64,000 nucleotides of DNA. It comes from an uncultured Alphaproteobacteria bacterium. GTDB lineage: Bacteria > Pseudomonadota > Alphaproteobacteria > RF32 > CAG-239. The position numbers and the translations under genes are program-made. Below are positions 55,600-59,449 of this stretch, in pieces. The first letter of the stretch is position 1; every line of letters starts with the position of its first letter. The stretch covers positions 203 to 64,202 of the forward strand of contig CANRJO010000005.1 in assembly GCA_947630965.1 (NCBI GenBank). The letters run 5' to 3'. The notes beneath the pieces were generated by a model. That model did not search any database and was not told the origin of the DNA. It saw nothing but the letters and a program-made list of their open reading frames with translations.

Positions 55600-55704
55600 A
55601 CATCAAAAAAAAGGTACCTTAAAAAATCGGGGTTGTCAAGCTCTAAAACCCGCAGTTTCGCGTTGGTTAATCTGTTGCATTTAAAGGTACCTTTAAATTG
55701 ATGT
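55600..55704. promoter_or_regulatory. Candidate invertible promoter flanked by 25-bp inverted repeats
   Basis: IR-L 55600-55624 ACATCAAAAAAAAGGTACCTTAAAA matches the reverse complement of IR-R 55680-55704 (ACATCAATTTAAAGGTACCTTTAAA) at 21/25; internal minus-strand TTGACA (55634-39)-N17-TACCTT (55611-16). Confidence 0.6.
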
Positions 55705-55754
55705 GATTCGAGAGCCGTCGAATGTCGGGAAAGGAGCAAAACACACCCCAAACC

Positions 55755-55883
55755 GTCATGCTGAACAAAGTGAAGCATCCAGGACAACAAATTCATCCTT
55801 ATTGTCATGCTGAACTTGTTTCAGCATCTCTTTATCAGATCCCGAAACAAGTTCGGGATGACATTGGGTTGGTTCGGGATGAC
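55755..55883. repeat. REP/MITE-like palindromic element cluster
   Basis: TGTCATGCTGAACTTGTTTCAGCATCT (55803-29) and AGATCCCGAAACAAGTTCGGGATGACA (55837-63) form an imperfect inverted pair; partial copies at 55755 and 55872. Confidence 0.8.
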
Positions 55884-55928
55884 TCTCTGTATAGAGGCGG
55901 ACGCAAGGAATAGAAAGGGGAAAAAGAA

Positions 55929-56972
55929 ATGCGACATGTGTTGATTTTGTTGGCTTTATTAATTACCAATGTGGCAAATGCAATAGATTGTGAGAAAACG
56001 CCAAATTGTGAAGAGTTAGGTTATTCCAAAGAAAATGACCCGAATTGTCTTGAGGACGGTTATATGCTCTGCCCATTTGATTTTACTTTTAAGAAATGTG
56101 TAGAGAAAGACTGTGCCAAACTCGGTTTTACCACATCTGACAAATCATCATGGTGCAAAGAAATTATAAAATGTCAGGGCAATGAAGATTATACTCTTTG
56201 CAATGAGAAGATTATTCCTCTCAATTGTGAAATCGGTGATGTTTATTATGCTGACGGGTCATGTGGCAAGGTCAATGATTATGTCAAAGATTCTTCGCCG
56301 AAACCTATCGGTGTTGTTTATTGGGTTACAGAAGACAAACAGCATGGCAAAGTGATTAACCTTAAAGACTTGGGTAGAAGTTCGTCAAGCGCCAAGTTTG
56401 ATCCTGCTGATCCATATCAGACAAGAAATAAAACCTTCCAGTGGGGTAGTTACCGTATGGACATTCCCGATGTAAAGAATTGGGATTGTAATACTGGTGG
56501 TTATGCAAGTACGGCGAAGACAGGGGATCATGACAACGAGTTTTGGTCAGGTGGTAAGGAATACACAGAAATTATTGCAAAAGCTCAAAGCGATGATTTG
56601 CAGTATGCAGCGCCTGCAGCAAGGGCATTTTATCCGCCAGATGTTGATCAAAACGACTCAAAAGTTGGTCAAGGGAACTGGTATTTGCCGACGGTGGGTG
56701 AGCTTATGGACTTGTATGGGTATGATTATCCAAACGTGAGCGGTTGTCAAGAAACAACAGGAAGTAACGGTCAGACCAAGAATAAGGTAAACGCTACGCT
56801 TACCACCTTGAAGAGCAAAGGTGTAACGGCTGAAACGTTAACAAATAATTACTATTGGTCCTCGTCGGAGTACAATAGTGACCGCTCATGGAAGCTCGGC
56901 ATGAACAGTGGTACCCGGTACTACTACAGTAAGCTCAGCAGCTACTCTGTTCGTGCGAGTCTGGAGTTTTAA
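55929..56972 (+). CDS. Secreted Cys-rich protein with C-terminal DUF1566/C-type-lectin-fold domain (probable DGR target)
   Basis: Signal peptide; CEELGY...CPFD module; PIGVV, WYLPTVGEL, YYWSSSE...SW...VRA..EF. Confidence 0.8.
   Translation: MRHVLILLALLITNVANAIDCEKTPNCEELGYSKENDPNCLEDGYMLCPFDFTFKKCVEKDCAKLGFTTSDKSSWCKEIIKCQGNEDYTLCNEKIIPLNCEIGDVYYADGSCGKVNDYVKDSSPKPIGVVYWVTEDKQHGKVINLKDLGRSSSSAKFDPADPYQTRNKTFQWGSYRMDIPDVKNWDCNTGGYASTAKTGDHDNEFWSGGKEYTEIIAKAQSDDLQYAAPAARAFYPPDVDQNDSKVGQGNWYLPTVGELMDLYGYDYPNVSGCQETTGSNGQTKNKVNATLTTLKSKGVTAETLTNNYYWSSSEYNSDRSWKLGMNSGTRYYYSKLSSYSVRASLEF
56850..56972 (+). other. Putative DGR variable region (VR)
   Basis: Only 1 of the last 40 codons ends in A; non-conserved positions are mostly NNC/NNT codons (TAC AAT AGT GAC CGC; TAC TAC TAC AGT; AGC AGC TAC TCT). 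Confidence 0.6.
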
Positions 56973-56990
56973 TTAAATATTATATCGTTT

Positions 56991-57022
56991 AAAAAACGCC
57001 GCATTTATTTGCGGCGTTTTTT
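56991..57022. terminator. Hairpin: terminator, and possibly a DGR target hairpin
   Basis: AAAAAACGCCGCA-TTTATT-TGCGGCGTTTTTT, 18 bp after the stop codon. Confidence 0.8.
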
Positions 57023-57037
57023 GTTGCTTAACTATAG

Positions 57038-57070: not shown

Positions 57071-57084
57071 GAAGGAGTACATTC

Positions 57085-58161
57085 ATGAGAGTTTTAATAC
57101 TTATACTCGGTATTTCCTTCGCGGTGGACGCATGGGCGGCTTGCTCGCCCATGCCAAGCTGTGAGGAGCTTAACTATACAGATACATATTGTTCGGGCGA
57201 ATATGTGACTTGCCCGTTTGATTCAAGTAAGAAAAAATGCCTTCCGTCGCCAAAAGAAGAATGCGAGGGTTATCCGTTAACAACATGTCCGCAACAGGGC
57301 GTGTGCGAAAATTGCCCTGAGAATCCTGCGCGGAAAAGGTTGGCAAATTGCTTAACACCAACACCGGCAGAATTATGCGCCGCGTATCCGCTCACGACTT
57401 GTCCGACAGACGGTGTGTGCGAAAGATGCCCGGATGATCCAACACGTTTAAGGTTGGCAAGTTGTGACTTTTCAGCATCGGGACAGATTTGTTCGGATTA
57501 TCCGCTCACAACTTGTCCGTTAGGCGGTATATGTGAATATTGTCCAGATAATCCATCGCGTGCAAAGGTAACTGGGTGCATTGCTCAACGTTATCTTTAC
57601 TATGATAAATGTTATAACACCTCTTGCGGATCCACTTTCCCGAACAGATTCGATCTTCTTATAAAAGCGATTGAAGAAAGCTCTATTATTGACAATTATG
57701 CTAAAGCTTGGCGAAGCGGTGGATGGCTTGCTTATAAGGATACATTTAGCGAATCTGAGATACAAATGTATACGCAAGATTTTCGGTACGCCATAACAGG
57801 TGCTCTGAATAGTACGTTTTGCTATAGTAAGAGCGAAAACGAGAAGGTCTATGTTGAAGATTATTATAATTCTAAATATGGCACTGACCCAATTCAGGGT
57901 GGCGTGGTAACGCAGTGTTGCTCCGCTAGAGATTCTGCCGGCAAGAGCACAATCTGTAGCTTTATCAGAGATTATGTCCAACAAGAATGCCAAGCTAGAG
58001 GACAAGCTATTGTGCCTTACGGTGTGTCTGGAGATGTTTGCCTTGGCTTTGGTCATGCTTCTTGGTCAGGTGTCGAAGTGCCTGATTATTCAGGCGAAAT
58101 TGGTAACTTCTATACGCTTTGTACACAAGCTATGAAAAAAGCCGGCTTAAGGTATGAGTAA
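57085..58161 (+). CDS. Cys-rich secreted protein, paralog 1
   Basis: Signal peptide AWA-A; one CEELNY..CPFD module, three C..YPLTTCP..G.CE.CP modules, then a C-terminal domain. Confidence 0.8.
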   Translation: MRVLILILGISFAVDAWAACSPMPSCEELNYTDTYCSGEYVTCPFDSSKKKCLPSPKEECEGYPLTTCPQQGVCENCPENPARKRLANCLTPTPAELCAAYPLTTCPTDGVCERCPDDPTRLRLASCDFSASGQICSDYPLTTCPLGGICEYCPDNPSRAKVTGCIAQRYLYYDKCYNTSCGSTFPNRFDLLIKAIEESSIIDNYAKAWRSGGWLAYKDTFSESEIQMYTQDFRYAITGALNSTFCYSKSENEKVYVEDYYNSKYGTDPIQGGVVTQCCSARDSAGKSTICSFIRDYVQQECQARGQAIVPYGVSGDVCLGFGHASWSGVEVPDYSGEIGNFYTLCTQAMKKAGLRYE

Positions 58162-58213
58162 TCTCTTATGAACCAAAAACCCGATGTTGTAAGGCATCGG
58201 GTTTTTGTTGTGC
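58157..58213 (+). repeat. 57-bp block containing a terminator, duplicated at 59393..59449
   Basis: AGTAATCTCTTRTGAACCAAAAACCCGATGTTGTAAGGCATCGGGTTTTTGTTGTGC, one mismatch between copies. Confidence 0.9.
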
Positions 58214-58267
58214 GTATTGTTGCAGCTTTAAAACCACGAACCCTTGATTTTGCTTGATTTATTTTGC

Positions 58268-58312
58268 TTGACTTTATGTGAAATTTGAGCTACCTTTAAA
58301 TTGATTAATCAA
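58268..58312 (+). promoter_or_regulatory. Sigma70-type promoter with a degenerate copy of the shared site
   Basis: TTGACT-N17-TACCTT followed by TAAATTGATTAATCAA. Confidence 0.7.
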
Positions 58313-58326
58313 TAAGGAGTATAATC

Positions 58327-59397
58327 ATGAGAGTCTTATTATCAATGCTCTGTGTCTTTTTTGCGGCAGAAGCATGGGCGGATTGTACGTCAATGCCAAG
58401 CTGTGCAGAACTTAATTACACAGATACATCTTGTAAGGGCGAATTTGTTACTTGCCCGTTTGATCAAACTAAGAAAAAATGTCTTCCTGTTCTTCCAAGT
58501 TGTGAGGAACTTCAATATACAGAAACATCTTGCCAGGGCGATTTTCTGACTTGCCCGTTAGATCCAAGCAAGAAAAGATGCCTTCCGTTACCAACACCGG
58601 CAGAGTTATGCGCCGCCTATCCGCTGACAACTTGTCCGTCAGGCGGTGTGTGCGAAAGCTGCCCAGATGATTCAACGCGTGTTAGGTTGGCAAGTTGCGA
58701 TTCTTCATCATCTGGAAAGCTTTGTTCGGATTATCCGCTTTCAAGATGTCCGACATATGGTGTATGCGAATATTGCTCGGATGATAGATCACGCGTTAAG
58801 CTGACAGGTTGCCAAGGGGACTATTATCGTTATGGCAACGGATGTTATGCCACAGCTTGTCAATATACAAACTTCCCGAACAGAAGAGACCTTGTCATAA
58901 AAGCGATTGAAGAAAGCTCTATTCTTGACGATTATGCTAAAGCTTGGCGAAGCGGTGGATGGCTTGCTTATAAAGATACATTTACCGAGAGCCAAATACA
59001 AATGTATGTAGAGGAATTTGTCCGTAGTATCGAAGATTCTATGAATAGTACTTTTTGCTATAACAATGCAGAAAATATGTATGTCTACGCGAGTGACTAC
59101 TATGATTCTAAATATAGTGATGAAAGAACGCAAGGTGGTACGACAGTGAAGTGTTGTGCTGCTAGAGATTCTGGTGGCAGAAGTACAATTTGTACTGACA
59201 TCAGAGATTATGTAGAAAAACAATGTCAAGGTAGAGGGCAGCATATTATGCCTTACGGCGTTTCCGGAGATGTTTGCCTTGGCTATGGTCAAGCTTCTTG
59301 GTCAGGTGTCGAAGTTCCGAATTATGTAGGCGACATTTATCACTACTATGATGTTTGTGAACAAGCTATGAAAAAAGCTGGTTTGAAGCTCCAGTAA
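58327..59397 (+). CDS. Cys-rich secreted protein, paralog 2
   Basis: Signal peptide AWA-D; two CPFD/CPLD modules and two YPL..CP modules; same C-terminal domain as 57085. Confidence 0.8.
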   Translation: MRVLLSMLCVFFAAEAWADCTSMPSCAELNYTDTSCKGEFVTCPFDQTKKKCLPVLPSCEELQYTETSCQGDFLTCPLDPSKKRCLPLPTPAELCAAYPLTTCPSGGVCESCPDDSTRVRLASCDSSSSGKLCSDYPLSRCPTYGVCEYCSDDRSRVKLTGCQGDYYRYGNGCYATACQYTNFPNRRDLVIKAIEESSILDDYAKAWRSGGWLAYKDTFTESQIQMYVEEFVRSIEDSMNSTFCYNNAENMYVYASDYYDSKYSDERTQGGTTVKCCAARDSGGRSTICTDIRDYVEKQCQGRGQHIMPYGVSGDVCLGYGQASWSGVEVPNYVGDIYHYYDVCEQAMKKAGLKLQ

Positions 59398-59449
59398 TCT
59401 CTTGTGAACCAAAAACCCGATGTTGTAAGGCATCGGGTTTTTGTTGTGC
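59393..59449 (+). repeat. Second copy of the 57-bp terminator block
   Basis: Matches 58157..58213; convergent with the uvrD stop. Confidence 0.9.

Follow-up and report, generated by a model that had tools for sequence, protein, structure and literature searches.

Three genes for secreted cysteine-rich proteins follow one another in a 64,000-nucleotide (nt) stretch of DNA from an uncultured gut alphaproteobacterium (contig CANRJO010000005.1 of assembly GCA_947630965.1; the whole stretch is called the window below), and one short site is found upstream of all three. The question raised by this locus (positions 55600 to 59449) is how its genes are switched. A sequence-only reading of the window had proposed a shufflon-like array, in which one promoter is handed round three cassettes by nested inversions resembling those of vsa or sap loci, and in which a second tier of sequence hypervariation is added to the choice of gene. 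We followed the site through the genome assembly to which the window belongs (1.52 Mb in 102 contigs, 93.6% complete; contigs are given by number, with the window on C5). The analysis favors a different design, to which we assign a probability of roughly 0.78. Each gene would have its own small flip-switch, inverted in trans by a recombinase of the Mpi family, and the window would display such switches in an intact OFF state, a deleted state, and a frozen ON state. The locus itself, judged by its sequence, is probably not a gene-shuffling array.

The repeated site in the window and in the genome

The 15-mer TACCTTTAAATTGAT occurs in the window as exact copies at 55688-55702, 57049-57063, and 58291-58305, all on the + strand, in agreement with the earlier observation of the same site in one orientation upstream of all three genes. 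No further match was found in the window when up to 2 mismatches were allowed (expected number, 0.36), and none of 100 shuffled sequences reached three copies. Upstream of gene 1, the 15-mer lies at one of two inverted repeats, the left at 55600-55624 (IR-L) and the right at 55680-55704 (IR-R), whose 25-nt arms are 84% complementary and 55 nt apart. Upstream of gene 2, the stretch 57038-57058 is 95% identical to positions 55604-55624 of IR-L, and its right part equals the outer arm of IR-R; the site is indeed a chimera of the two outer arms, as had been claimed. The core upstream of gene 3 reads GCTACC where the other copies have GGTACC. Each of the three genes has a separate Shine-Dalgarno sequence (read in the sequence) and its own terminator hairpin on the + strand (56991-57022, with a 13-nt perfect stem followed by a T run, for gene 1; 58174-58207 for gene 2; 59410-59443 for gene 3), which again confirms what had been noticed.

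The same site was found far beyond the window. Genome-wide, the 15-mer has 14 exact matches and 62 matches with at most 1 mismatch, and the core AAGGTACCTT has 102 exact occurrences. A filter for A/T-rich flanks kept 143 sites; when neighbors 40-130 bp apart were paired, 120 of them formed 60 pairs, distributed over 39 contigs, and 23 remained unpaired. Measured between centres, 32 pairs are spaced by 73 bp and 28 by 83-85 bp (classes A and B below), corresponding to about 7 and about 8 helical turns, and no pair of intermediate spacing was found within the pairing window. The enclosed segment measures 55 nt or about 66 nt, and its only strongly conserved parts are the -35 box TTGACA, found at one end, and the inner half-sites. 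The composite TTGACA-N13-AAGGTACCTT occurs 56 times in the genome, and a reversed control does not occur at all; TTGACA is thus placed 17 nt from the TACCTT of the site. When the 120 outer arms were aligned on the site centres, they gave [G/T]CAA-(TTT or AAA)-AAAGGT; the inner arms at the promoter end read CCAATTTTTTAAGGT, and those at the other end TGCATTTAAAGGT. Each site consists of two half-sites of about 13 nt with dyad symmetry around a central TA. Crossover sites of serine recombinases (hix, gix, and res site I, for example) have half-sites arranged in this way around a central dinucleotide. From these alignments, the site consensus is [G/T]CAA-WWW-AAAGGT followed directly by ACCTTT-WWW-TTG[C/A]. 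The 15-mer is, with the probability given above, the gene-proximal outer half-site of this genome-wide recombination site rather than a locus-specific shuffling site, and it would double as a putative -10 element (TACCTT) and transcript start.

Next, we considered the genes behind the paired sites (called invertons below). Cys-module open reading frames (ORFs) were defined by a signal peptide followed by C-x-P-x-C-x-[LM]-[GN]-[YF]. Such an ORF lies within 600 nt on one side of 53 of the 60 pairs. Conversely, the genome contains 59 Cys-module ORFs of at least 120 amino acids (aa), and 52 of them have a paired inverton within 700 nt upstream. The seven exceptions are genes 2 and 3 of the window; the ORFs at C2 1518, C10 9671, C20 1441, and C37 5841, each of which is preceded by an inverton with one degenerate site; and the ORF at C58 6331, for which no paired inverton was found within 700 nt upstream. 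A genome-wide motif scan, which the sequence-only reading had suggested as a check, therefore finds the site essentially restricted to genes for Cys-rich secreted proteins.

The orientation of the 60 pairs was scored by the direction of the -35 box, which points away from the gene (OFF) in 50 pairs and towards it (ON) in 3; 7 pairs were unassigned. The ON score at C2 39304 is read as a misassignment, because the nearer gene belongs to an adjacent inverton, which leaves two clear ON copies (C19 4126 and C31 70) and one ambiguous copy. The four half-degenerate copies were inspected by eye, and three are OFF and one is ON (C37). In both clear ON copies, the outer arms follow the pattern predominant among OFF copies, with TCAA towards the gene and GCAA away from it, and only the inner segment is reversed. 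This is the arrangement predicted for a crossover at the core, not for insertion of a whole element in the other orientation. Both orientations are present among paralogous loci (50 OFF and 2 clear ON).

In the same genome-wide set, four pairs (C10:20222-20314, C13:5257-5339, C11:1600-1682, and C39:1749-1842) have their OFF-state promoter facing an ORF outside the family that starts 31-136 nt away, and these switches may toggle between two divergent genes. A compound element at C93:1176-1344 contains three sites and two tandem segments, one of class A and one class-B-like, with the middle site common to both; no other multi-site arrangement was seen. We considered whether C3 and C93 represent two assemblies of one polymorphic locus, and rejected this, as they are 88% alike over 201 nt.

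The distribution of the composite across organisms is narrow. TTGACA-N13-AAGGTACCTT was found in 4 of 201 genomes, with 56 copies in the present genome, 25 in a genome of the same genus (G003), and 1 in each of two others. In species-representative genomes, 11 of the 80 stretches among the matches listed came from one uncultured Alphaproteobacteria metagenome-assembled genome, and the remaining ones among the matches listed were nearly all single matches in unrelated organisms.

Candidate invertases and the three gene units

The genome contains four ORFs with a resolvase domain (PF00239) and three tyrosine recombinases, none of them on C5; no match to PF00239 or PF00589 was found on this contig, and no recombinase is encoded in the window. 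Three of the serine recombinase genes, all of which also match PF00239, exceed the cutoff (272 bits) of the model NF009949, "master DNA invertase Mpi family": C14:26990-27586 with 309.3 bits, C16:1896-2489 with 280.8 bits, and one on C35 with 281.9 bits. The best-scoring of the three can be aligned over its full length with gamma-delta resolvase, Tn3 resolvase, and a DNA invertase of known structure. Across the bacterial family, the Mpi model matches in 108 of 121 genomes and scores above its cutoff in 69. At C14:26207-27586 and C16:1896-3257, the Mpi-family gene is directly followed by a paralog of about 195 aa that reaches 50-58 bits on the Mpi model. The two paralogs were found by eye to be devoid of the RVST catalytic motif, and both pairs adjoin ORFs resembling sugar or glycosyltransferase genes, a resemblance judged by eye. 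The C14 gene has, 155 nt upstream of it, an inverton truncated where the contig stops (C14:27742-27803), whose TTGACA is aimed at that gene; from this arrangement, the C14 Mpi-like invertase may itself be under a flip-switch.

Based on these sites and genes, we propose that a trans-acting serine invertase of the Mpi family flips the segment between two paired sites by a crossover at the central TA. After the flip, TTGACA would lie at a distance of 17 nt from one of two TACCTT copies, that in the gene-side site (ON) or that in the far-side site (OFF), and in the OFF state the promoter would fire into an upstream terminator. Nearly every secreted Cys-module gene would have its own switch. The consensus assembly shows almost all of these switches OFF, a picture to be expected if a given cell expressed no more than a few of the genes. 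Within the window, an intact class-A switch in the OFF state would precede gene 1, a solo site left after excision would precede gene 2, and a decayed class-B-like switch in the ON state would precede gene 3.

The switch of gene 1 (window 55611-55693, corresponding to C5 55813-55895) is complete. Its left site (55600-55624) has the core GGTACC at 55613-55618, with the centre at 55615/55616, and the outer arm ATCAAAAAAAAGG. Its right, gene-proximal site (55680-55704) has the core at 55686-55691 and the centre at 55688/55689, 73 bp from the first centre; its outer arm together with the start of the 5' untranslated leader makes up the 15-mer. The class-A segment between them (55625-55679) carries the promoter elements on the - strand, with TTGACA at 55639-55634 placed 17 nt from TACCTT at 55616-55611. 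Read in this way, gene 1 would be OFF, with its promoter pointing left into a bidirectional hairpin after acpS, and the TACCTT at 55688-55693 would become the -10 element once the segment was flipped. The untranslated leader (55705-55928, + strand, about 226 nt) is packed with short hairpin repeats, similar to repetitive extragenic palindromes, that recur genome-wide. This insert is missing in some paralogs, in which the site leads to the ribosome binding site within about 20 nt, and a contig joint 55704->55926 in the public data described below originates from such paralogs. The product of gene 1 itself (55929-56972, + strand) is a secreted 347-aa protein of the Cys-module type, and its C-terminal domain resembles Lcl_C. 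The match to PF07603 (Lcl_C) on residues 245-343 reaches 30.7 bits and stays under the cutoff of 34.9. Paralogs of gene 1 show 65-77% nt identity.

Upstream of gene 2, we found a solo site, AGCAAAAAAAAGGTACCTTTAAATTGAT (57036-57063, core 57047-57052), in which a far-side outer arm directly abuts a gene-side outer arm. The sequence as read shows no -35 box at a usable distance upstream of it. Gene 2 (57085-58161, + strand) is an intact ORF for a secreted Cys-rich protein of 358 aa. A paralog on C3 that is 80% identical to gene 2 has the same far-side arm, gene-side arm, ribosome binding site, and ATG, with an invertible segment between the two arms. The simplest history suggested by this comparison is that the two sites of one switch recombined and cut the segment out precisely, leaving the solo site; this would be possible because the crossover dinucleotide TA is symmetric, that is, its own complement. 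The C3 arms enclosing a segment also agree with an alternative offered by the sequence-only reading, in which deletion of a switch left the 57038 site behind as a scar. Gene 2 would now be promoterless and, under the flip-switch reading, silent. The genome contains five true solo sites, and that of gene 2 is the only one with an intact Cys-module gene behind it; no Cys-module gene was found within 600 nt of the other four, which are read as decay scars.

The gene 3 unit begins with a degenerate class-B-like segment that faces the gene (58227-58305, + strand; TTGACT at 58268-58273, a 17-nt spacer, and TACCTT at 58291-58296). Its proximal core is mutated to GCTACC, and its distal site is gone, with unrelated sequence following the gene 2 terminator instead. 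Two stretches located between sites resemble positions 58227-58297, namely, C3 1821-1891 with 90% identity and C93 1274-1344 with 91.5%. The gene-facing segment, the lost distal site, and the mutated core support the view already taken of this copy, namely, that it is locked ON with a -35 box of its own. Gene 3 (58327-59397, + strand, 356 aa) is a tandem paralog of gene 2, with about 75-81% nt identity. Neither gene 2 nor gene 3 has a match in Pfam or in the Atlas. Their family is nearly an orphan, with 6 relatives at an E value of at most 0.001 among 5.8 billion proteins, three of which are in this genome's own cluster set.

Rearrangement evidence and rival explanations

We searched for rearranged forms of the locus in public DNA, which consisted of four runs from one sample of one study in the form of assembled Logan contigs; no RNA run was listed. 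In these contigs, no inversion joint or gene-sized rearrangement attributable to this locus was found. A joint 57060->55633 was first considered as a local rearrangement and was rejected, its six extra letters TTCTAC matching a paralogous inverton on C1. Loose contig ends at the sites were likewise rejected as local junctions and match paralogs on C10, C70, and C19 instead. One contig of one run joins window positions 59305-59404 to 58169-58799 (59404->58169, a step back of 1236), and the joint spans a 45-nt repeat common to both terminators; some members of the population may carry an additional tandem copy, or the joint may be an artefact of the graph. No relative of gene 2 was found in metagenome contigs at large. 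Ten stretches from a 20-mer scan of these contigs were tried as other strains; none has GGTA upstream or AAGGTACCTT, and they are taken as chance matches. The locus is not syntenic in G003, where the genes after acpS are unrelated and uvrD sits at the beginning of a contig.

Several points speak against the flip-switch reading. At IR-L, the Logan contigs contain the assembled (OFF) junction only and no alternative. The TACCTT hexamer agrees with the -10 consensus at 3 of 6 positions and is a poor -10 element, and a consensus promoter scan reported no TTGACA-17-TACCTT promoters. To our knowledge, a 73-bp loop is shorter than Hin- or Mpi-type invertible segments, and synapsis over it would need strong bending. 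The gene 2 ORF is intact although the gene would be silent, which fits a very recent deletion or a gene that can still be activated. Finally, assigning any one of the three Mpi-like enzymes to these sites is a matter of inference.

The last but one of these points leads to the best-surviving rival, a minimal shufflon. It says that IR-L recombines with a live solo site at 57049, so that a 1,434-bp inversion turns gene 1 and moves TTGACA in front of gene 2, at 17 nt from the TACCTT there; expression from one mobile promoter would alternate between genes 1 and 2, and gene 3 would be constitutive. The geometry of this idea is sound. The window does hold three complete recombination sites (IR-L, IR-R, and the solo site) within 1.5 kb, in addition to the degenerate fourth at gene 3. 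Both half-sites of the solo site are complete and its GGTACC core is perfect, the symmetric TA makes any two sites chemically compatible, and gene 2 is the one case among the five solo sites in which an intact Cys-module gene lies behind, 1.4 kb from a complete inverton. The three-site element on C93 shows that multi-site arrangements occur. Against this, 52 of the 59 family genes have private switches, a point that also counts against the full set of nested inversions first proposed, and the other four solo sites have no Cys-module gene within 600 nt. The spacing of 73 or 83-85 bp in all 60 pairs suggests an enzyme that acts on a fixed short loop. Moreover, free recombination between distant sites would leave the chromosome scrambled, given about 125 compatible sites in 1.5 Mb, yet long syntenic contigs survive. 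No junction of the predicted form was found among the Logan contigs, the 57060->55633 joint matching the C1 inverton, and neither was any other rearranged junction attributable to the locus. The nested-inversion proposal for all three cassettes is weakened further by the fixed TTGACT-17-TACCTT promoter of gene 3 and by the absence of a recombinase from the window. We therefore consider the minimal shufflon improbable.

A second rival holds that the invertons are copies of a miniature inverted-repeat transposable element with 25-nt terminal inverted repeats and an outward promoter, which inserted either way and does not flip today. The roughly 60 copies are indeed 86-96% identical to each other, compared with 65-77% for the genes behind them, terminal inverted repeats are present, and both orientations occur. 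However, the elements have a constant position relative to the gene start and to the family, and their orientation is biased 50:2. The two clear ON copies reverse the inner segment only, with outer arms that follow the flanks; solo sites keep exactly two outer arms; and the genome encodes three Mpi-family invertases. The sequences of the paired sites show no evident target-site duplication, and no transposase was seen beside the elements, though no search for one was made. An insertional origin of this kind without flipping appears very improbable. A static promoter or transcription factor operator, inherited by gene duplication without any rearrangement, is hardly credible: genes 2 and 3 are tandem duplicates with the motif inside the duplicated block, and the palindromic AAAGGTACCTTT could bind a dimeric regulator, but paired inverted sites at fixed spacing, a -35 box directed away from the gene in 50 of the 53 pairs that could be assigned, solo sites, and Mpi-family invertases would all be left unexplained.

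Variable gene ends and known systems

The proposed second tier concerned a region similar to a diversity-generating retroelement (DGR), and at the level of sequence this region is real. The last 117 nt of gene 1 (56856-56972, + strand) constitute a variable region (VR) whose template repeat (TR) lies on another contig (C37:7265-7381). The template is 117 nt long, AAC-rich, and intergenic, contains 44 adenines, and is found 390 nt after a paralog of gene 1. Between template and gene 1 VR, 17 of the 44 adenines and 2 of the 73 other positions are changed (Fisher P = 5e-7). Four further VRs were found: at the 3' end of the C37 paralog (C37 6759-6875), with 17/44 adenines and 1/73 other positions changed; on C20 (20954-21070), with 21/44 and 5/73; on C17 (3719-3835), with 22/44 and 6/73; and on C42 (1906-2022), with 26/44 and 12/73. 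The gene bodies of gene 1 and the C37 paralog share 76% identity, yet the two agree at 70 of the 73 nonadenine VR positions, which points to templated homing into both genes after their divergence. The C37 cognate target has its switch ON, and its proximal core is mutated. Judged by its position and by the subthreshold PF07603 match, the lectin-like C-terminal domain of gene 1 would end in the DGR VR. DGR targets with a C-type-lectin fold or DUF1566 are known from Treponema (TvpA) and Legionella (LdtA).

The idea of two tiers gains support, gene 1 being both behind a switch and a DGR target. However, no reverse transcriptase (RT) or Avd was found in the assembly. No RVT_1 match was obtained in the 93.6%-complete assembly, tblastn with ORFs of 300-470 aa from the RT loci of five relatives found nothing in it, and the accessory protein Avd (PF05635) had no match there either. 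The gene after the template repeat is convergent and unrelated. The DGR could have become a fossil recently, or an element missing from the assembly could supply its RT. In the sister species, a separate complete DGR is present in an apparent prophage with an integrase (G003:C3:50000-64000, 6737-8392), with a VR (6737-6841) at the end of an 897-aa protein, a TR (7011-7115), and a 383-aa RT. This RT, the only one in G003, was rejected as a partner of the template described here; its DGR is prophage-like, with an unrelated template.

A more ambitious combination can be drawn from these elements. A regulon of about 60 switches would pick a few of about 59 "Cys-handle" proteins, a DGR with its RT on an unassembled element would rewrite the lectin-like tips of at least three to five of them in trans from one orphan template, and the solo site would hand the gene 1 promoter to gene 2. 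We regard this joint scenario as doubtful. The position of gene 1 behind a flip-switch and as a DGR target nevertheless suggests that gene choice and binding-tip hypermutation can be layered on one adhesin family.

Mpi-type invertons are already well known. The site consensus of Bacteroides fragilis Mpi is ARACGTWCGT, and the core AAAGGTACCTTT found here has only the GTWC centre in common with it. Shufflons (R64, Mycoplasma pulmonis vsa, Mycoplasma agalactiae vpma, Campylobacter fetus sap, and B. fragilis Tsr0667 SusC/SusD) resemble the locus in that three full sites lie within 1.5 kb beside genes for surface proteins. Unlike them, it has no single common promoter, no set of promoterless cassettes, no linked recombinase, and no rearranged allele seen in contigs. 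With known DGRs, those of the Bordetella phage Mtd and of Bacteroides pilus tip adhesins (PMC12632263) among them, the template and VRs share an AAC-rich template repeat (117 nt here), the location of VRs at the extreme 3' end, adenine differences, and several targets in trans. They differ from known DGRs in the lack of RT or Avd in the assembly, in the convergent unrelated gene after the template, and in having targets under invertible promoters. In the full texts searched, DGRs and invertible promoters or DNA inversion are only mentioned together in passing, with no such combined system described. Literature on invertons and Alphaproteobacteria yielded one passing mention, in the DeepInverton study; supplementary catalogue tables of predicted invertons fell outside the search.

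The closest parallels are two. With the B. fragilis Mpi regulon (PMC10403206), the present system shares the NCBIfam equivalog family, an invertase encoded away from its targets, and, at each target, a promoter between inverted repeats of one consensus; in B. fragilis, deletion of mpi locks the promoters. It differs in its host, an uncultured gut alphaproteobacterium instead of a member of the Bacteroidales, and in its roughly 60 targets in 1.5 Mb compared with 13 in B. fragilis. Its targets are single genes for secreted Cys-rich proteins and not polysaccharide operons. The segments are 73 or 84 bp from centre to centre, with the -10 inside the recombination site, and there are three Mpi-like genes plus two paralogs without RVST motif (by eye). 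In Mycoplasma penetrans, the mpl (P35) family of surface proteins is large and distributed over several loci and tandem arrays, and each gene is proposed to be switched independently by its own small invertible promoter next to it, a design that PMC2268961 sets against the nested inversions around a single promoter of vsa, vpma, and vsp. According to the same source, the candidate recombinases of mpl are tyrosine (Xer-like) enzymes. The lipoproteins are unrelated, and the genes number 38, compared with about 59 here.

What seems to be new in the present system is the number of switches (some 60 in 1.5 Mb), their minimal size of 73/84 bp with the -10 placed in the site, the host lineage, three decay states next to each other, and the overlap with DGR targets. 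If the flip-switch reading is true, global phase variation of the Mpi type extends from the Bacteroidales to small-genome gut Alphaproteobacteria, with about one switch per 25 kb. The length classes of 73 and 83-85 bp, about one helical turn apart, would constitute a natural test case for serine-invertase synapsis over a short loop, and intact, deleted, and frozen switches in one locus would show how such switches decay. By the contrast between a single promoter with nested inversions and one invertible promoter per gene, the system appears to belong with M. penetrans mpl and the Bacteroides Mpi regulon (PMC2268961, PMC4747536, PMC10403206).

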